Assembly: GCA_000004985.1 (NCBI GenBank)
Contig: GG739091.1
Length of the DNA: 8,148 nucleotides
Source: Naegleria gruberi
Lineage: Eukaryota
Direction: 5' to 3' (one strand)
Part shown: piece by piece, positions 1,299 to 8,148 of the stretch
How positions within the stretch are numbered: the first letter of the stretch is position 1
How the letters are laid out: every line of letters starts with the position of its first letter
Program-made: the position numbers and the translations under genes
The notes under the pieces: model-generated
What the model saw: only the letters and a program-made list of their open reading frames with translations
What the model was told of the DNA's origin: nothing
The model's database searches: none

Positions 1299-1853
1299 GT
1301 GGTCGGCATTTCTTTGTGTTGCGCCACACTACTTGCAGCCTGTTCCTTCTTCATTGCTTCAATAGTTGTCAATTCAACTGCAGATAAATTACAGGAAGAA
1401 TTCTTCGACATTGTCAATGTTAAGATTACAGCCAAAATTGTCAATGTTTTCAATAATTGTAAAACCTATAGAAGAGAGACAGAATGTTATCCAATTGTTC
1501 GAATGGTTGATTTCTATCCATTCCAAATAGAAAATGTTACAAACCCAAACAGCAATAACACAGTTACGAGAGCAACAACCATGGCCACATCCAATCTTTC
1601 AAAACTAAAAGTGGATGAGATTATTTCTCTCTACATTGAAGTGAATACAACACCATCCACAAGTTCTCAAATTACATGGAAGAAGGTAATGTATGAAAAA
1701 CCTGGAAATCCAAAATATGATGAATATCAATACTACAAGGCCGTTTTTAGCCCACTTCTTTTTATCATGCTGGCTTTAATTTGTCTTACTTTTATTTTCT
1801 TGTTTCTTCTTGTTGGTCTTATGTTTGCAAGCAGACCCGTTGGTCTTTTTTGA
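1299..1853 (+). CDS. Hypothetical membrane or surface glycoprotein. It has an N-terminal hydrophobic signal-like segment, multiple N-x-S/T sequons and a C-terminal ~27-aa hydrophobic anchor. The start codon is unresolved: there is no in-frame ATG before 1504.
   Basis: The 184-codon frame is open from 1242, but the first in-frame ATG is at 1504 (MVDFYPFQ...); the track's start at 1299 is GTG. The N-terminus (ISLCCATLLAACSFFIASIVV) and C-terminus (SPLLFIMLALICLTFIFLFLLVGLMFA) are hydrophobic. Sequons include NST, NVT, NNT and NTT. A possible upstream mini-exon is ATG 1163-1182 with GT at 1183 and AG at 1275-1276, which would join in frame. This is speculative. Confidence 0.4.
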   Translation: MVGISLCCATLLAACSFFIASIVVNSTADKLQEEFFDIVNVKITAKIVNVFNNCKTYRRETECYPIVRMVDFYPFQIENVTNPNSNNTVTRATTMATSNLSKLKVDEIISLYIEVNTTPSTSSQITWKKVMYEKPGNPKYDEYQYYKAVFSPLLFIMLALICLTFIFLFLLVGLMFASRPVGLF

Positions 1854-1866
1854 TGAATTAAAGTCT

Positions 1867-2669
1867 GATTACAATAAAGGTGATTCATTATGCATAATTT
1901 GTTTACCGACAAGTCTTATCCTATAATCTAGATAATCCGAGTCCTATTTCATTAATTATTCCTTCTATTTCTTCTGAAATAAATTTGACAATTCCTTTGT
2001 TCAATGTTTAGATGAACTTTAACCGCCAACAATTTAACAATATTTTAATTTAAAAAAAGTCATTGTTTCATGTTCGATCCAGCTGAAGAGCTACGAAAAA
2101 TCATCCAACGATGATAAGACTGAACCAAAGGCTAAAAAAAGGAAACTCCATGATGTAATTAATATAACCATGAATTTTTAGAACAAATGAAAGAATAATT
2201 GGGATGCACTATTGGTGAGATAATCAACTATTCCAAAAATATTAATTCTACAAGGGAATAATTTAATGACCTTTTAATAGAACTTATTTTGCATATGAAA
2301 GACCCGTCGATTAAGACTAGATGGTCAGTCGAAGAATGTATTACACGCTTAAAATCCCAATACAAAACAGAGCTAAAGACAAGGGTTGATCAAAAGGAAA
2401 AGTATAGGGATAGGGTGGATAAATTTAAAAAAACAAATCTATTGTTGATAAAGCACTATTTCAATAAACTTGACAGAAACAGAACATTCTATGATTTCAC
2501 CATCATCCAATGGTCCAAAAGTTTACTGTCTTTCCGTATAAAGGGACAATTTGGTTACAGCAGTTGGCAAATATTGTTAAAAGGATATCAATGAACAAGA
2601 TTGAAAGCAAGTGTTTCTACTAAGGTAGTTTCAGAAATTGTGGAAATTTACGAAACCGTTGAACCAATT
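1867..2669 (+). repeat. Copy A of a duplicated ~600-800 bp segment, truncated by the scaffold gap at 2670.
   Basis: Nucleotides 1867-2444 align to 3775-4337 and 2635-2669 to 4338-4367, with about a dozen substitutions and several small indels (a 16-bp block at 1900-1915 and a 12-bp block near 2112-2123 are present only in A). A carries an extra ~190 bp (2445-2634) that B lacks. Confidence 0.85.
2295..2594 (+). CDS. Small hypothetical basic, coiled-coil-like ORF (99 aa) carried inside repeat copy A.
   Basis: ATG at 2295, preceded by an in-frame TTG at 2289. The product reads MKDPSIKTRWSVEECITRLKSQYKTELKTRVDQKEKYRDRVDKFKK.... I recognise no family. Its B-copy counterpart is truncated. Confidence 0.3.
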   Translation: MKDPSIKTRWSVEECITRLKSQYKTELKTRVDQKEKYRDRVDKFKKTNLLLIKHYFNKLDRNRTFYDFTIIQWSKSLLSFRIKGQFGYSSWQILLKGYQ

Positions 2670-2895
2670 TNNNNNNNNNNNNNNNNNNNNNNNNNNNNNN
2701 NNNNNNNNNNNNNNNNNNNNNNNNNNNNNNNNNNNNNNNNNNNNNNNNNNNNNNNNNNNNNNNNNNNNNNNNNNNNNNNNNNNNNNNNNNNNNNNNNNNN
2801 NNNNNNNNNNNNNNNNNNNNNNNNNNNNNNNNNNNNNNNNNNNNNNNNNNNNNNNNNNNNNNNNNNNNNNNNNNNNNNNNNNNNNNNNNNNNNNN
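2670..2895. other. Scaffold gap (226 N). In copy A it sits where copy B has the sHSP coding region.
   Basis: A run of N. Six-frame ORFs crossing it are artefacts. Confidence 0.95.
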
Positions 2896-2927
2896 CCTTC
2901 TAAATTTGCTTGTTTTGTTGGATTCAT
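2896..2927 (-). CDS. Possible 5' end of a minus-strand gene that runs into the scaffold gap. Its position is equivalent to the sHSP start in copy B.
   Basis: A minus-strand frame is open from 3035 with its first ATG at 2927 (MNPTKQANLE...) and continues into the Ns at 2895. The region 3075-3283 on its upstream side is homologous to the sHSP upstream region 5380-5517. The N-terminus differs from that of the sHSP. Confidence 0.2.
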
Positions 2928-3058
2928 TGTATGTAGCAAGTGGTTGAGAAGGAGAGATTTGAGTGGATGAAGTTGTTGGTTTGGTTGAGAGAAGGATTTT
3001 GGTTTTCTACCCCTCTTCTTCTTGGTTGCTGTTAATCAATCCATTTGTTATTTAAATT

Positions 3059-3178
3059 CCGGTCTGACTTTTCCGGTCTGGTTTTTACTTCTAATTTCGG
3101 AATTAAAAATAGTCTATTTTTAATTTTTAAAATTTTATTTTTGGATGAGAGACCGGAAAATCTGGTCATTGACTCTGG
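3059..3178. repeat. Imperfect inverted repeat: (tt)ccggtctg x2 at 3059-3083 facing agaccggaaaa at 3151-3161, bracketing an AT-rich core.
   Basis: ttttccggtct at 3071-3081 is the reverse complement of agaccggaaaa at 3151-3161. tccggtctg is also directly repeated at 3060-3068 and 3074-3082. The element is extra sequence relative to the homologous region upstream of the sHSP in copy B. Confidence 0.5.
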
Positions 3179-3194
3179 CTTTTCTACTCCTACC

Positions 3195-3283
3195 TTATGA
3201 TTATTTCTTATTCCGAAGTGAACAAAATTGGTCAATTAACAATTAAGGAATTATTAAAGTTCCGTAAGTTTTTAAATTAATTG
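3195..3283 (+). promoter_or_regulatory. Conserved 88-bp upstream element, copy 1 (candidate cis-regulatory module).
   Basis: ttatgattatttcttattccgaagtgaacaaaattggtcaattaacaattaaggaattattaaagttccgtaagtttttaaattaattg is about 97% identical to 5429-5517, while the surrounding sequence carries multiple indels. Confidence 0.4.
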
Positions 3284-3370
3284 CAGAGGAAGATACGCGG
3301 TGTTAAAATGAGAGGGTGGTAAAAACCTCCCAGCGATGGCTGTACAAAAAAACTCGGCTGATAATTAATA

Positions 3371-3401
3371 CCTGCAGTATTTTAAAAATAAATACTGCAG
3401 G
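3371..3401. repeat. Perfect inverted repeat or hairpin: 12-bp arms (cctgcagtattt / aaatactgcagg) around a 7-nt A/T loop.
   Basis: Read directly: cctgcagtatttTTAAAAAaaatactgcagg. It contains two CTGCAG sites and lies in a locally GC-richer patch (3286-3420). Confidence 0.8.
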
Positions 3402-3623
3402 CACCTATTATTCCATGCCGGAAGATTATGTATTATTATGTATCAAATGATTATTATTTAATACAAATTGTTTGCTTCATTATGATTAAACATTAAACTA
3501 GGTTTTATTAATAATAAATACTGTTAATTTATTCAACAAATAGTAATATATATAAATAAACGTTAATATTTCAATAAACGTAAATAAACTTAAAAAGACG
3601 TTACTATTTGTAATTATTTGATA

Positions 3624-3678
3624 TAAATAAACGTAAATAAATGTAAATAAACGTAAATAAATGTAAATAAATGTAAAG
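3624..3678. repeat. 10-bp minisatellite (taaataaa[c/t]g) x5, with dispersed half-copies at 3555-3584.
   Basis: Five head-to-tail units (taaataaacg, taaataaatg, taaataaacg, taaataaatg, taaataaatg) followed by taaag. Copies of aaataaacgt recur at 3555-3564 and 3575-3584. Confidence 0.85.
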
Positions 3679-3724
3679 TCATGAAAATAGTTTATTTTTC
3701 TTCTGCAAAAAGCTTTTTCAATTC

Positions 3725-3774
3725 NNNNNNNNNNNNNNNNNNNNNNNNNNNNNNNNNNNNNNNNNNNNNNNNNN
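3725..3774. other. Scaffold gap (50 N) directly abutting the start of repeat copy B.
   Basis: A run of N. Confidence 0.95.
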
Positions 3775-4367
3775 GATCACAATAAAGGTGATTCATTATG
3801 CATAATTACTTATCCTATAATCTAGATAATCCGAGTGTCCTATTTCATTAATTATTCCTTCTATTTCTTCTGAAATAAATTTGACAATTCCGTTGTTCAA
3901 TGTTTAGATGAACTTTAACCGCCAACAATTTAACAATATTTTAACTTAAAAAAAGTCATTGTTTCATGTTCGATCCAGCTGAAGAGCTATGAAAAATCAT
4001 CGACTGAACCAAAGGCTAAAAAAAGGAAACTCCATGATGTAATTAATAACCATGAATTTTTAGAACAAATGAAAGAATAATTGGGATGCACTATTGATGA
4101 GATAATCAACTATTCCAAAAATATTAATTCTACAAGGGAAATAATTTAATGACCTTTTAATAGAACTTATTTTGCATATGAAAAACCCGTCGATTAAGAC
4201 TAGATGGTCAGTCGAAGAATGTATTACACGCTTAAAATCCCAATACAAAACAGAGCTAAAGACAAGTGTTGATCAAAAGGAAAAGTACAGGGATATGGTG
4301 GATAAATTTAAAAAAACAAAAATCTGTTGAAAAATTGTGGAAATTTATGAAACCGTTGAACCAATTG
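3775..4367 (+). repeat. Copy B of the duplicated segment, immediately downstream of the 50-N gap and immediately upstream (on the plus strand) of the sHSP 3' end.
   Basis: Direct alignment with 1867-2669. The junction of the ~190-bp deletion relative to A shows 1-2 bp of microhomology (atctgttga|aaaattgtgg). Confidence 0.85.
4178..4330 (+). pseudogene. Truncated paralog (50 codons) of the 2295-2594 ORF in repeat copy B.
   Basis: The first 47 residues match A apart from D3N, R31S and R40M. The ~190-bp deletion then brings a TGA in frame at 4328-4330. Confidence 0.3.
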
Positions 4368-4412
4368 ACCCAAATACGAAATTGGTTGTACAGACAATAG
4401 TTTCAGTTAATT

Positions 4413-5321
4413 TTATTCAATTGAAATTTCTTTAACTCTTTCTTTAATTTCTGGTTCATCAATTCTTGGAATTTTCACACTCAAAGTTCCTTCATCTGAA
4501 AGAGTTGCTTTAACTTTATCCAAATCAAGCGAACCCTTTGGAAATCTGAAAGATTTAGAGAATTGGAAATGACCATTTTCAGTTTTCTTTTCAGCACTAA
4601 TTGTAATCAAATCACCAAGTGAATTTTCCTTAATCTTTACCTCAATATCTTTCTTTTCAAACACATCTCTTGGAATATTATTAATATCTAGTGAGAGCTC
4701 ATTCTTTCCATCTTGATTAATTGTTCTAATCACAGATGAAATTGGACCTCTACGTCTCAATGGCTTATCAGTAGATGTTTCACTCATTGAAGAACTTTCA
4801 CTTGATGATGAAGATGAAGAGCTAATACTCTTTTGAGCATTATTATTCATAGAATTGAAAGAATTGGTATAATCTTCCCACCATTGATGATCATCAAAGA
4901 GGGAAGGCAACATGTTTGATCTTCTCATCATGTTATTCATTCTTCTTCTCATGGAATTGAAAGATTCATCAAAGTTAGAAAAAGGTGATGATTGAAACCA
5001 TTGATTATCAAACCAATCATTCTGATATCCTTGGTTCAATCCTTTCATCAACTTTTTCCAAATATTCTTCTTTGATTTCTTCCTTGATAACTTTTTAGAT
5101 TTTTCTGTTTTAATATTTAATTGAGGATTTGATGAGGAAGAGTATTTACCAGATTGATCATGATCTGGTAATGGTGTTGTTGATTGTCCCTCCTTCTCAA
5201 CACGTACCTCTTCCTCTGCTGTTATAAGGGAAATATCTAAACAATAAACAATGAAGAGTACTGCAAGTAGACTTGAAATGATTACTGTTGTTTTGAATTG
5301 TTGTTGATTTATCTTCATCAT
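4413..5321 (-). CDS. Small heat-shock protein (Hsp20/alpha-crystallin domain) with an N-terminal hydrophobic signal-anchor or signal peptide, a basic patch, a W/F/D/N-rich segment and a poly-Ser tract.
   Basis: Uninterrupted 302-aa ORF running from ATG to stop. The C-terminal ~90 residues (nt ~4464-4739) read GKNELSLDINNIPRDVFEKKDIEVKIKENSLGDLITISAEKKTENGHFQFSKSFRFPKGSLDLDKVKATLSDEGTLSVKIPRI. This matches the alpha-crystallin-domain beta-sandwich pattern, including the C-terminal V-K-A-x-L-x-D-G-x-L-x-[IV]-x-[IV]-P-[KR] stretch. Residues 11-33 (TTVIISSLLAVLFIVYCLDISLI) form a hydrophobic helix after a basic n-region. Residues 162-180 are a poly-Ser run. Residues 100-150 carry a W/F/D-rich region of the kind seen in sHSP N-terminal arms (WDPF-like). 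Confidence 0.8.
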   Translation of the reverse strand: MMKINQQQFKTTVIISSLLAVLFIVYCLDISLITAEEEVRVEKEGQSTTPLPDHDQSGKYSSSSNPQLNIKTEKSKKLSRKKSKKNIWKKLMKGLNQGYQNDWFDNQWFQSSPFSNFDESFNSMRRRMNNMMRRSNMLPSLFDDHQWWEDYTNSFNSMNNNAQKSISSSSSSSSESSSMSETSTDKPLRRRGPISSVIRTINQDGKNELSLDINNIPRDVFEKKDIEVKIKENSLGDLITISAEKKTENGHFQFSKSFRFPKGSLDLDKVKATLSDEGTLSVKIPRIDEPEIKERVKEISIE

Positions 5322-5428
5322 TATGATTTTCTTTTTGAGAATTGATGTTCTATGAAGCAGTTGATGATCAATTTATTGTACTTCGGAATAAAACACGTAT
5401 TATTGTTGTCTATTTTTAATACTTAACA

Positions 5429-5517
5429 TTATGATGTTTTCTTATTCCGAAGTGAACAAAATTGGTCAATTAACAATTAAGGAATTAATAAAGTTCCGTA
5501 AGTTTTTAAATTAATTG
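5429..5517 (+). promoter_or_regulatory. Conserved 88-bp upstream element, copy 2, lying 108-196 bp upstream of the sHSP ATG (minus-strand gene).
   Basis: Same sequence as 3195-3283. It sits in the 5' flank of the sHSP CDS. The sequence directly abutting the ATG is aaaatcataATG. Confidence 0.4.
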
Positions 5518-5725
5518 AATTAATAACATACCAATTGTAATTAATTCATTATTTATTTTGGTTCCCCAATTACCTCGTACAGAAGTATTATGATTGTGAT
5601 AGATCTATTGGAGTGTAGATAAATAAGGACTGTGAAACCCATAAGAGTGTATTAACACTAACATTTTTTTGTCAAATACACAAATTGTAGAGATTAATAT
5701 AGCATGATAAGAACCCCTCGAGTTG

Positions 5726-6179
5726 ATGCCTGCCTTTGGCAAATGGGAGGTAATTACTCAGGAAATTGCAACACAAGCTACAGAGAATTTCAAGGATGAT
5801 CCTGACGTTCTTCTTAATGTCATTCGAACCGATATTGCTCAACAAGTTGTCTCAAGAAATGGTCTTTTATTGCAATATTTCTCACCACAAATCAGAGCAA
5901 ACGATGTTGTGAAAATGGCCATTCAACAGAATCCGTCCTCTCTTCAAAAAAGAGTTTAGTCCAGAACGAGGAAATAGTAACAAAAGCAATTCAATATGAT
6001 GGATCAGTGCTACAATTCGCACAAACACAATTTAAATCAAGACAATTAGTATTGGAAGCTTGAGTAATGATGTTAGAGCATACAGATTAATAGATTCTTC
6101 GTTGAGAAGCGATGAAGATATTCTAAAGGTTTACTCCAACTCTACCAGTTGTTGGACTATTACATTCGATGAAAAGTAA
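5726..6179 (+). CDS. DUF4116-type repeat protein gene, interrupted by two apparent -1 frameshifts (at about 5946-5951 and 6058-6063). Read through, it encodes about 150 aa.
   Basis: Three consecutive frames each encode units of the DUF4116 repeat pattern (..D.evvl.Av.qnG.aLqyas.elr.D.e..): DPDVLLNVIRTDIAQQVVSRNGLLLQYFSPQIRANDVVKMAIQQNPSSLQ, then NEEIVTKAIQYDGSVLQFAQTQFKSRQLVLEA, then NDVRAYRLIDSSLRSDEDILKVYSNSTSCWTITFDEK. Both frame breaks coincide with homopolymers: A6 at 5946-5951 and the T-run in gcttga at 6058-6063. Adding one base at each gives the continuous peptide ...SSLQKKSLVQNEEIV...LVLEALSNDVRAY.... Confidence 0.6.
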
Positions 6180-6261
6180 ACACGTTGATTATTCAAAGAA
6201 TAGTTTCTTGACCACATACCATGCATTTTAGGAGACAAATTGATTGTTTTTTTTGAAAATA

Positions 6262-7593
6262 TTAATCATAACTTGGTTCTGGCATGTTTTCATGACATAG
6301 GTCTCTATATCTTTCCACATCCCTTTCCCACTGATAAATATTTTCATGATCTTTTGATGACATGCATAACATCCTTGATACATTATACATTTGACCGTAG
6401 TATTCTGCTGCGTCATCAAGCCACTCATATTTATCAAACTTTTCCTTAATTGCTGATTGATATTGATGAACTAACTCTATCCACACATTATTATCTTTCA
6501 AGAGTTGTGGAATAATGTCCAAAGATGATAAAACAAGCAAAACACCTTGACTGTCAATATTTTCAAGATAAGGGCGTAAATTTTGAAGCATAATATTACC
6601 AATTAAATGCTTTTGGGTATCTTCAAGCTCAAATGAGGAGAGAAGAGCAAACGTAATCCTAAATCTCCATTCATTATCCAGTGGTTCGAATTTGAGAATT
6701 AAAGTTCCAATTTCCTCAACACTTATGAATTCTGCTTCCAAACCAACCACAATTCTCATAATCTCATTTCTATTGTCTGTTTGCGTAATTACGATTAATT
6801 CTGATTCTGATTCTACAATTTTTTTAATGGTAATATTAAAGCCACCTACAACTAATCTCCATTTGCATAACAGTTCAAATGATTTGGAGGTACTATTTGG
6901 GAGTAAATGAAGAATCTGCTTATCCAGCTCATCAATCAAATTGCTTCTATAAACTGGTGTTGAGATTGAATAAACCATCCGCTCCATAATTCCCAAATAT
7001 TCTGTAAAATTAGGGTATCTCAAGTAATAACCCAATACTTGTACTATCATTTTATCTAGAACATATTGTTGGGAAATATCAAAGAATGTGGAAGAGATAA
7101 GGTAGTTTAAACCCTTTTCAGCGTAAGAACTCGTAATGCTACTCAATCCGCTTCTATGGAATAGGTTGAAAAATAGCAAAAGATAAACGCCACCAATATT
7201 TGTCAACTTGGTACAATCATCCTTGACGGTATAAAAAGAATCAACAATAGACTGTAAGTGCTTATGAGTTGGATTGTTTTCAAAATAACCAACCATTTCA
7301 AAGCATGCTTTCAAAAATAACAATTCCTCTTTGTATTTGCTTGTCTTGATATATTTCTCAAACTCTGTTTTAGCTTTGCCCAACCACTTCTCTTCTGGGT
7401 TTCTGTTGTGGTACACGCAAACAAGCAAATAGGCAATAATGTAGCCAATAGAACCATCAGAAAATTGTTGTGTGGAGAGATGATCGATGTTGTTCAACAC
7501 TGTTGGGATCAATTGGTTGGTGAGTGGTTTTTCTGCAGCCGTTTTTATGTTTTGCATAACTTGGTGCATTTGTGAGGGTTGGATACTAAACAT
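6262..7593 (-). CDS. Hypothetical protein, 443 aa. Predicted largely alpha-helical, with no family I can recognise.
   Basis: It is the longest uninterrupted ORF in the window (1332 nt including stop), with non-repetitive composition and balanced amino-acid usage. No TM or signal segment is evident. Its 3' end lies 82 bp from the 3' end of the DUF4116 gene, so the two are convergent. Confidence 0.75.
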   Translation of the reverse strand: MFSIQPSQMHQVMQNIKTAAEKPLTNQLIPTVLNNIDHLSTQQFSDGSIGYIIAYLLVCVYHNRNPEEKWLGKAKTEFEKYIKTSKYKEELLFLKACFEMVGYFENNPTHKHLQSIVDSFYTVKDDCTKLTNIGGVYLLLFFNLFHRSGLSSITSSYAEKGLNYLISSTFFDISQQYVLDKMIVQVLGYYLRYPNFTEYLGIMERMVYSISTPVYRSNLIDELDKQILHLLPNSTSKSFELLCKWRLVVGGFNITIKKIVESESELIVITQTDNRNEIMRIVVGLEAEFISVEEIGTLILKFEPLDNEWRFRITFALLSSFELEDTQKHLIGNIMLQNLRPYLENIDSQGVLLVLSSLDIIPQLLKDNNVWIELVHQYQSAIKEKFDKYEWLDDAAEYYGQMYNVSRMLCMSSKDHENIYQWERDVERYRDLCHENMPEPSYD

Positions 7594-8148
7594 TTTTTTG
7601 AGGCAAGGTAAATTTTTATTTATTTTCTAGGGTTAATTTTCCCAAAATGTTTACTTTTTATTCAAAACCTTATTGAAAATGAATTATTATTGAAAGTAAG
7701 CGATACCAACAACCACCCATTGTTAGAACCTAGTATTAAATTAATATGCTCTGAGTCTTTTCAACTGCGCCAAAACCCCAACACATTATCCACCTTAATT
7801 CTCAATGCTTAACTCAATAATCGCCTATCCAAAAAAAAACATAAATAACAGTTGTTTGAAGCAAATCTTATTCTAAACCAAACTAATCCTTTATTAATAC
7901 CACTAACAATCATTACAATTCGCCAACCAGCAAAACCAAAAAGGACCTTTAAATCTATCGAAAAGTGGGTCCTGAAATTTGGACCCGACTTATTTACTAT
8001 TAAAAATTGAGTGTAATTTGGCTTGAACGCTAGGATTACAAAAAGGTTTTCAAGCTTGGAGAATTATTTGTTCGCTTGCAACTCCCATCAAGAAAATTTT
8101 AATAATCGTGAAAAAACTGGAAGTTTGGATTTTGGAACGTTAAAAAAA

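Follow-up and report, generated by a model that had tools for sequence, protein, structure and literature searches.

Small heat-shock protein (sHSP) genes are known to form local clusters of tandem duplicates that include pseudogene remnants, as at 67B in Drosophila and hsp-16 in C. elegans. Duplications can also be false: Kelley and Salzberg 2010 (PMC2864568; see also PMC9516828) described "duplicated overlapping contigs", false segmental duplications from uncollapsed haplotypes, recognised in neighbouring contigs by overlaps that reach the contig ends at >95% identity. Judged by mate pairs, 5,698 of 5,947, 13,159 of 13,571 and 1,094 of 1,366 candidates were errors in three whole-genome shotgun (WGS) assemblies, against just 8 of 22 in a fourth, and the median identity of the false duplicates was 98.1% (PMC2864568).

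The window analysed here is a whole 8148-bp scaffold of Naegleria gruberi NEG-M, consisting of three contigs split by two runs of N. NEG-M is heterozygous and its assembly was built from Sanger shotgun reads. Heterozygosity of N. gruberi was reported by Fritz-Laylin 2010, as cited in PMC9928731; papers citing the genome paper give no numerical value, so that the only yardstick is internal (a twin identical at 245 of 247 residues, described below). The layout, located from the N runs and the sequence, is as follows, with no strand assigned to these features:

1-2670: contig 1, whose final 804 nt are segment A
1867-2670: segment A, non-coding-looking, matching the 3' flank of the sHSP gene and stopping at the end of contig 1
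2453-2634: 182-nt block in segment A, missing from segment B (self-BLAST, alignment)
2671-2895: gap 1, 225 N
2896-3724: contig 2, roughly the length of a single Sanger read at 829 nt, unique outside a ~100-nt upstream element
3725-3774: gap 2, 50 N
3775-8148: contig 3, opening with segment B
3775-4367: segment B, flanking the intact sHSP gene on its 3' side and starting with base 1 of contig 3

A preliminary description of this DNA had placed both gaps, counting 226 N in the first where there are 225, and had copy B begin directly after the second, which is borne out by position 3775 being base 1 of contig 3. The round 50 N of gap 2 suggests a placeholder value, and the ~1.9-kb period proposed earlier depends on two estimated gap lengths.

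A repeated segment at two contig ends

Self-BLAST of the window pairs 1867-2452 with 3775-4334 (E = 0.0) and 2635-2669 with 4332-4366 (97%). In a global alignment, the main block contains 11 substitutions over 555 aligned columns (98.0% identity) and seven small indels of 14, 2, 12, 2, 1, 2 and 3 nt, while BLAST, counting gap columns, reports 92.4%; the earlier figure of about 96% with several indels was thus a fair one. Since the homology opens with base 1 of contig 3 (3775) and closes with the terminal base of contig 1 (2669/2670), it forms a suffix-prefix (dovetail) overlap. The first difference between the segments lies at 3778, 3 nt into contig 3, and the last base of contig 1 is also mismatched, the pattern that the two ends of a heterozygous bubble should show. 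Both the sequence relationships and the contig geometry are directly visible in the scaffold.

Searches of the segment for a coding identity returned nothing with Pfam or with a word-indexed search, and the two phmmer matches of an exhaustive search, tandem-repeat proteins aligned over many weak stretches, were rejected as compositional. In the A/B alignment, three of the four substitutions within the longest open reading frame (ORF) of the segment are non-synonymous. Lacking a conserved ORF or credible homologues, the segment looks like fast-evolving non-coding DNA, whose alleles can differ by the amount seen between A and B. To the left of segment A, an unannotated ORF (1299-1853) has no homologues.

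Since both copies adjoin gaps, either assembly redundancy or ordinary local duplication may have produced them. We consider the duplicated 0.6-0.8-kb segment most likely to be assembly redundancy and not two loci on one chromosome, at a probability of about one half and with an allelic origin that we infer. Mechanistically, the AT-rich DNA 3' of the sHSP gene would have ~2% substitutions between the two haplotypes, together with an indel of 182 nt and several others of slippage type, and the assembler, failing to merge the alleles, would leave one at the end of contig 1, joined to the left flank, and the other at the start of contig 3, joined to the right flank. In turn, the scaffolder, unable to overlap these contigs, would set them head-to-tail, a minimum gap replacing the impossible (negative) distance. 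The read-sized contig 2 would be a structurally different allele of what lies upstream of the gene; alternatively, mate pairs would have drawn in a related piece. The locus would then hold one intact ER/secretory-type small heat-shock gene, a dead 3' fragment (581-935) and no hidden second gene.

The locus resembles the duplicated overlapping contigs of PMC2864568 in being Sanger WGS of a heterozygous organism, in its suffix-prefix overlap of >300 nt reaching both contig ends (1867-2670 against 3775-4367), and in its identity of 98.0% over aligned columns, to which are added copies at gaps, a tiny scaffold and a gene with a near-identical counterpart on another scaffold. It differs from them in that a largely unique third contig separates the two copies, and in an identity that is 92% once indel columns are counted, plus the 182-nt indel. 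The dovetail geometry, the round 50-N gap and the 99% twin add weight to the haplotype reading; the position of both copies at gaps, the 8148-bp orphan scaffold and the absence of a second close sHSP copy from the proteome (see below) also speak for redundancy. On the other hand, contigs 1 and 3 are not neighbours, and a simple dovetail leaves no place for the 88%-unique contig 2 between them. Eight indels in ~600 nt, one of them of 182 nt, are also many for alleles.

The intact sHSP gene and a decayed partial copy

The sHSP gene, its partial copy and a neighbouring gene lie on the minus strand:

4413-5321, minus strand: NAEGRDRAFT_76695 (copy B), intact sHSP-like gene, 302 aa, Pfam HSP20, 100% match to N. 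gruberi EFC35647.1
581-935, minus strand: copy C, frameshifted pseudogene fragment with the sHSP 3' half (alpha-crystallin domain) and a little 3' flank
6262-7593, minus strand: NAEGRDRAFT_76696 (orf443), 443 aa, neighbour of the sHSP gene

The sHSP ORF reported earlier at 4413-5321 is real, with residues 221-301 matching PF00011 at E = 1.5e-8 and 35.1 bits, above the Pfam HSP20 cut-off of 20.8. A hydrophobic N-terminus and an EEExxVEKEG motif are followed by a low-complexity linker and a C-terminal alpha-crystallin domain, the latter conserved across Naegleria homologues in the alignment. The protein is like a Naegleria-specific sHSP-like family with a hydrophobic N-terminus, comprising P0004 (a 325-aa N. 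gruberi paralogue encoded on a 245-kb scaffold), N. lovaniensis C9374_004885 and N. fowleri FDP41_006955, in its hydrophobic leader, its EEExxVEKEG and RRRMNNM...LPSLFDDHQWWED motifs and its C-terminal alpha-crystallin domain, although its identity to these three is just 41-45%. It is the only intact sHSP gene in the window, and the predicted N. gruberi proteome contains no second copy at an identity of at least 90%. Exact-protein look-ups for independent copies of the locus, made with the sHSP, its paralogue, orf443, the orf443 twin and the copy-C ORF in a contig index without the N. gruberi assembly, gave no record.

The neighbouring gene provides the twin mentioned above: residues 182-428 of NAEGRDRAFT_76696 are identical at 245 of 247 positions to a truncated gene model (247 aa) found on another scaffold, of 695,587 bp, so that redundancy at the ~99% level is present in the assembly at this locus. 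The 8-kb scaffold probably belongs in or beside a gap of the 695-kb scaffold.

Copy C, a third and partial sHSP copy, had been overlooked in the preliminary description. It is disabled by two deletions (5 nt and 37-38 nt) and is ~93% identical to 4374-4756, with tblastn giving 93% over residues 207-278; a 216-nt ungapped block shared with copy B contains 8 differences (3.7%), four synonymous and four non-synonymous. Copy C lies with segment A in one gap-free contig, and a genuine paralogous duplication of the sHSP gene has therefore occurred here, within 4 kb, which counts against redundancy as the explanation.

This evidence bears on a rival reading, which we regard as credible but hold tentatively, that a genuine local tandem duplication runs along the chromosome, with segment A, gene A, element A and a spacer followed by segment B, the sHSP gene and element B, the whole being part of a small decaying cluster of which pseudogene C is another remnant. 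In such an array, gene A would be short or chimeric, with a new 5' end (MNPTKQANLE) possibly fused to an alpha-crystallin 3' half, and the contig breaks would mark the edges of a ~380-nt three-copy repeat beyond the resolution of the assembler. Consistent with this, contig 1 ends at the equivalent of 4367, a few nucleotides short of where copies C and B begin to match (~4374), which would also result if a repeat had broken the assembly of a real three-copy array. Copies A and B differ by 2% in the flank and by 4% in the element, comparable to the 3.7% between C and B in the coding block. Two separate homologous blocks, moreover, are colinear and equally oriented across the three contigs, with the otherwise unique contig 2 sitting between the copies. 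As in tandem sHSP clusters of the kind seen at 67B, an intact HSP20-domain gene is accompanied by a decayed partial copy, here 3.5 kb off, and a short upstream element is possibly common to neighbouring gene starts; what differs from those clusters is that a second functional copy would be hypothetical here and that the second gene start in view bears no relation to sHSPs.

Several observations argue the other way. The copies are head-to-tail in orientation, but both gaps interrupt them: no junction is seen, the one before 3775 falling in the 50-N gap, and the A-to-B junction and all of gene A would lie within gaps. A local duplication offers no special reason why the geometry should be that of a dovetail, mismatched at the very tips of the contigs, and extra events (replacement, gene conversion) are needed to explain why blocks of 98% identity adjoin wholly unrelated sequence. 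The N. lovaniensis homologue stands alone at its locus, as a single copy, and shares no neighbouring genes with the window, the sHSP being the only match; this synteny says little about N. gruberi. Finally, most duplications with such a layout were false in three of the four assemblies surveyed in PMC2864568.

Contig 2 and the first gap

Contig 2 holds an apparent gene start and one of two copies of an upstream element, the latter with no strand assigned:

2896-2927, minus strand: apparent start of an unassigned gene, ATG at 2927, MNPTKQANLE..., running into gap 1, unrelated to sHSPs
3181-3283: upstream element, copy A, 254-265 nt upstream of the ATG at 2927
5413-5517: upstream element, copy B, 92-105 nt upstream of the sHSP ATG

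The core of the element (3192-3283 against 5426-5517) is identical at 88 of 92 positions (E = 8e-38), and with one 2-nt gap the match reaches 3181-3283 against 5413-5517. Of the homology previously drawn between 3075-3283 and 5380-5517, only these final ~100 nt stand, as contig 2, compared with the entire window by sensitive blastn, shows no significant match for 2896-3180 to copy B or elsewhere. The stretch 3284-3724 is equally unrelated to copy B, leaving contig 2 88% unique (~100 of 829 nt matching) and its element flanked by 296 nt and 441 nt of unrelated sequence. With so little matching, contig 2 is unsupported as a simple allele of the copy B upstream region; as an allele of any kind, it requires a large structural difference between the haplotypes. 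A further point against redundancy is that contig 2 carries the second upstream element, with its order and orientation matching those of copy B. Homology between the right end of contig 2 and the left flank of segment A would show unit B continuing leftward; none was found, the score being below the shuffled mean.

Another explanation, which we consider very unlikely, is a dispersed repeat: the segment, the ~100-nt element or both would be members of a family scattered through the genome (for example mobile-element remnants or a shared promoter module), the contigs would have been chained through such repeats, and contig 2 would come from another locus. The element is partly palindromic, copy B pairing in part with an incomplete inverted copy at 5365-5391, and upstream in contig 2 there is a second palindrome of ~100 nt; contig 2 has nothing else in common with copy B, and the segment has no coding identity. 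Against it, the blocks keep a colinear order and a common orientation, neither terminal repeats nor target-site duplications flank the segment, no transposase-like ORF is present, and neither the sHSP protein nor a 30-mer of the upstream element gave any hit when metagenomes were scanned. RNA genes and tRNAs were sought in the repeat and in contig 2, with none found, and the heat-shock-element consensus GAAnnTTCnnGAA, allowing up to one mismatch, is absent from either upstream region, its matches across the window being at chance level.

The sHSP coding region had been said to fall exactly in gap 1, in a ~1.9-kb duplicated unit of segment, gene and element. This had been deduced and not observed: from the segment end to the ATG there are ~955 nt in B versus 257 nt in A, 225 of them N, and the anchors are spaced ~510-520 nt apart in A versus ~1045-1060 nt in B. 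Taken at face value, gap 1 could hold up to ~75 codons and is ~700 nt short of an sHSP gene. A second sHSP gene in gap 1, or an entire unit, is not supported, the gap being far too short and the adjoining 296 nt, gene start included, unrelated to copy B. The unit itself was over-drawn: the segment (555-593 nt) and the ~100-nt element are repeated, the rest of contig 2 is unmatched. No sHSP-like coding sequence was found in 2896-3724, five Naegleria sHSPs matching only copies B and C when run by tblastn against the window, and the peptide from the ATG at 2927 has, as stated before, no likeness to the sHSP N-terminus, nor by tblastn to any Naegleria sHSP. Nothing shows a second gene in the gap.

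A ~380-nt repeat, on the other hand, suits the estimated 225-N gap far better than the 955-nt full gene, in favour of local duplication. An unlikely extension of that reading is that the array is real and gene A a young chimeric gene, a tandem copy of the ER-type sHSP that would retain its alpha-crystallin 3' half and its palindromic element of ~100 nt and would have gained a new leaderless N-terminus (MNPTKQANLE).

Consequences for Naegleria sHSP genes

The view that the assembly is unreliable at this locus is supported. Of the two origins proposed for it, tandem duplication and haplotypes placed head-to-tail, both survive; the hidden second sHSP gene and the entire duplicated unit are not supported. 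Either redundancy or local duplication would be an ordinary outcome. The result serves as a quality flag, in that gene-family counts and "recent duplication" calls made on the 2010 draft of N. gruberi should exclude a second sHSP gene here. If the duplication were real, the locus would be one more small decaying tandem cluster, unsurprising and of local interest for the hydrophobic-leader family of Naegleria sHSP-like proteins. Were the chimeric gene also real, a cytosolic mini-sHSP would have arisen by duplication and 5' replacement, and the shared element would be a common, perhaps stress-responsive, promoter module.

The repeated segment and the ends of the contigs

The window corresponds to one entire small scaffold (8148 bp, AT-rich, G+C ~31%) from the 2010 Sanger draft of N. 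gruberi NEG-M, in which three contigs are parted by 225 N (gap 1) and 50 N (gap 2). Only two annotated proteins are found among its ORFs, the sHSP and a 443-aa protein at 6262-7593.

Contigs and annotated genes of the scaffold
1-2670: contig 1
2896-3724: contig 2, 829 nt, about one Sanger read in size
3775-8148: contig 3
4413-5321, minus strand: sHSP gene, NAEGRDRAFT_76695 (EFC35647.1, 'predicted protein [Naegleria gruberi]'), 302-aa ORF, 100% identity
6262-7593, minus strand: NAEGRDRAFT_76696, predicted protein, 443 aa

A tandem duplication of a unit formed by a segment, a gene and an upstream element had been proposed in the preliminary description. The duplicated segment itself, which is the 3' flank of the sHSP gene, was borne out by self-BLAST: 1867-2452 in the tail of contig 1 (segment A) matched 3775-4334 at the head of contig 3 (segment B) with E = 0.0, far above chance, and 2635-2669 also matched 4332-4366. 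Copy B indeed starts at the first base past the second gap. Global alignment of the main block gave 11 substitutions in 555 aligned columns (98.0% identity; 6 transitions and 5 transversions) together with seven short indels, most of them slippage-type; a 182-nt block of copy A (2453-2634) is missing from copy B. No ORF is kept between the two segments; a 101-aa ORF of A is shortened to 52 aa in B, and in our own reading of the alignment three of the four substitutions it carries change the amino acid. The segment gave no Pfam match, no homologue in the indexed protein search, and no RNA families or tRNAs. Judged from its sequence, it looks like non-coding DNA. Two tandem-repeat proteins returned by an exhaustive search of the segment were rejected, as their scores were summed over many weak stretches.

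That the A/B repeat is redundancy of the assembly has, in our judgement, a probability of about 0.5; this covers both a plain overlap and a structurally heterozygous locus whose haplotypes were placed one after the other. The homology takes in the very first base of contig 3 and the very last of contig 1, which makes it a suffix-prefix overlap. The first difference comes at base four of contig 3, and contig 1 ends on a mismatch; such differences at contig ends are what the opening and closing of a heterozygous bubble gives. The layout resembles the 'duplicated overlapping contigs' of Kelley & Salzberg (PMC2864568), the A/B identity of 98.0% lying next to their median of 98.1%. Most such candidates were errors in three of the four Sanger WGS assemblies of that study; in the remaining one, just 8 of 22 were (PMC2864568). 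The round 50 N of gap 2 would be a floor value for a small or negative estimated distance.

NAEGRDRAFT_76696 provides a yardstick: elsewhere in this assembly, a 695,587-bp scaffold carries a truncated twin of it, NAEGRDRAFT_64207 (247 aa, 245/247 identical; the counterpart of 6310-7050), so that redundancy at ~99% exists for this very locus. The size of the twin, ~740 nt, suggests a further read-sized contig dropped into a gap. Probably the 8-kb scaffold is a haplotype variant of the 695,587-bp one, or overlaps with it at a gap or at one end. By the yardstick of the twin, a divergence of 2% does not exceed the allelic range for AT-rich non-coding DNA. Heterozygosity of N. gruberi has been reported, as cited in PMC9928731.

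Contig 2, gap 1 and the upstream element

A genuine local duplication is rated only slightly less probable than assembly redundancy, and contig 2 speaks for it: this contig, 88% unique, lies between copies A and B, and the second copy of the upstream element that it carries is correctly ordered and oriented. Self-BLAST matched 3192-3283 to 5426-5517 (88/92 identical, E = 8e-38; ~103 nt if one gap is allowed). The distance from the element to the start codon downstream of it is 92-105 nt for the sHSP and 254-265 nt for the ATG at 2927. Homology had been claimed for 3075-3283 and 5380-5517; the last ~100 nt of it stand and the remainder falls, as a sensitive search with contig 2 over the full window matched nothing beyond this element. 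With 296 nt and 441 nt of unrelated sequence on either side of the element, contig 2 cannot be a simple allele of the copy B upstream region.

The placement of a second sHSP coding region 'exactly in the gap' goes beyond what the sequence shows. From segment end to ATG there are ~955 nt in copy B versus 257 nt in copy A, 225 of which are N, and the 296 visible nt bordering gap 1 are unrelated to copy B. Nor does the ~1.9-kb period hold, as it is made up of two estimated gap lengths. The ATG at 2927 (MNPTKQANLE) is present as described and bears no relation to sHSPs. Whichever reading is taken, a second sHSP gene in the gap has no evidence in its favour; a gene in copy A, if present, would probably be short, with a 5' end unlike that of the sHSP.

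Each of the two minus-strand gene starts has a palindrome of ~100 nt with TTCCG / CGGAA cores upstream of it. The one at 5365-5468 overlaps the conserved element, which in copy B partly pairs with an inverted copy at 5365-5391 (fold z = -4.9); the one at 3065-3167 is contig 2's own. Both could be promoter palindromes or relics of MITE-like elements. Allowing up to one mismatch, the heat-shock-element consensus GAAnnTTCnnGAA had no match in either upstream region, and its matches across the window were at chance level.

Contig 2 also holds a perfect hairpin at 3371-3401 (12-bp stem CCTGCAGTATTT / AAATACTGCAGG, 7-nt loop TAAAAAT, fold z = -4.5) within a locally G+C-richer island (3284-3420); its sole Rfam match, mir-3116, was non-significant (E = 0.44). 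Immediately left of the 50-N gap stands an AT-rich minisatellite (3544-3689; ~5-7 copies of the 10-nt unit TAAATAAA(C/T)G), a plausible cause of the contig break. The right end of the contig (3694-3724) reads ...ELKKLFAEEK* on the minus strand. A gene may have its 3' end here; its body would then necessarily lie inside the '50-N' gap, which hints that gap 2 is larger than stated.

A third sHSP copy

The earlier inventory of sHSP copies was incomplete. A third, partial copy, C, is found at 581-935 on the minus strand, with ~93% identity to 4374-4756 and covering the alpha-crystallin half. A 5-nt deletion ahead of the conserved block disrupts its reading frame, a premature stop results from a 37-38-nt deletion, and the eight differences in a 216-nt ungapped block comprise four synonymous and four non-synonymous changes. 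On this sequence reading, copy C is a pseudogene fragment. Since it shares one uninterrupted contig with segment A, paralogous duplication of the sHSP at this locus is real and independent of the gaps.

This proven local paralogy favours a genuine duplication of the A/B segment as well. Contig 1 ends a few nt short of the stretch common to C and B (~4374), and a ~380-nt three-copy repeat suits the 225-N estimate far better than a full gene; left unresolved, such a repeat would account for both gap edges. In addition, eight indels in 600 nt are high for alleles. That the A/B repeat is instead a dispersed repeat seems very improbable. Metagenome scans with the sHSP protein and with a 30-mer of the upstream element returned no matches.

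Gene content and significance

The HSP20 domain of the 302-aa protein scores over the Pfam threshold. The protein has a hydrophobic N-terminal leader, an EEExxVEKEG motif and an RRRMNNM...LPSLFDDHQWWED motif, all three common to one N. gruberi paralogue, N. lovaniensis, N. fowleri and one metagenomic protein (41-45% identity). The leader points to a possible ER or secretory location. In N. lovaniensis the homologue is single-copy and has no neighbour genes in common with the window.

A 184-aa ORF at 1299-1853 (plus strand), hydrophobic at both ends and with several N-x-S/T sites, stops 14 nt short of segment A; it has no homologues among 5.8 billion proteins and no N. gruberi annotation. An ORF with DUF4116 repeats (5723-6180, plus strand; Pfam E = 1.3e-8) extends, by eye, to ~6180 across stop codons and frame breaks. 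Absent from the protein collection, it is probably a pseudogene or an interrupted gene without annotation.

Public Nanopore reads of strain NEG-M, R9 and R10, exist (PMC12695648, PMC12344493; EBI S-BSST1363), as do RNA-seq data sets for 23 °C and 30 °C (PMC12695648). Both candidate explanations are textbook ones: a draft whose haplotypes were left uncollapsed, or a small cluster of tandem genes that includes a pseudogene. The finding, otherwise ordinary, has its value as a warning about this scaffold.
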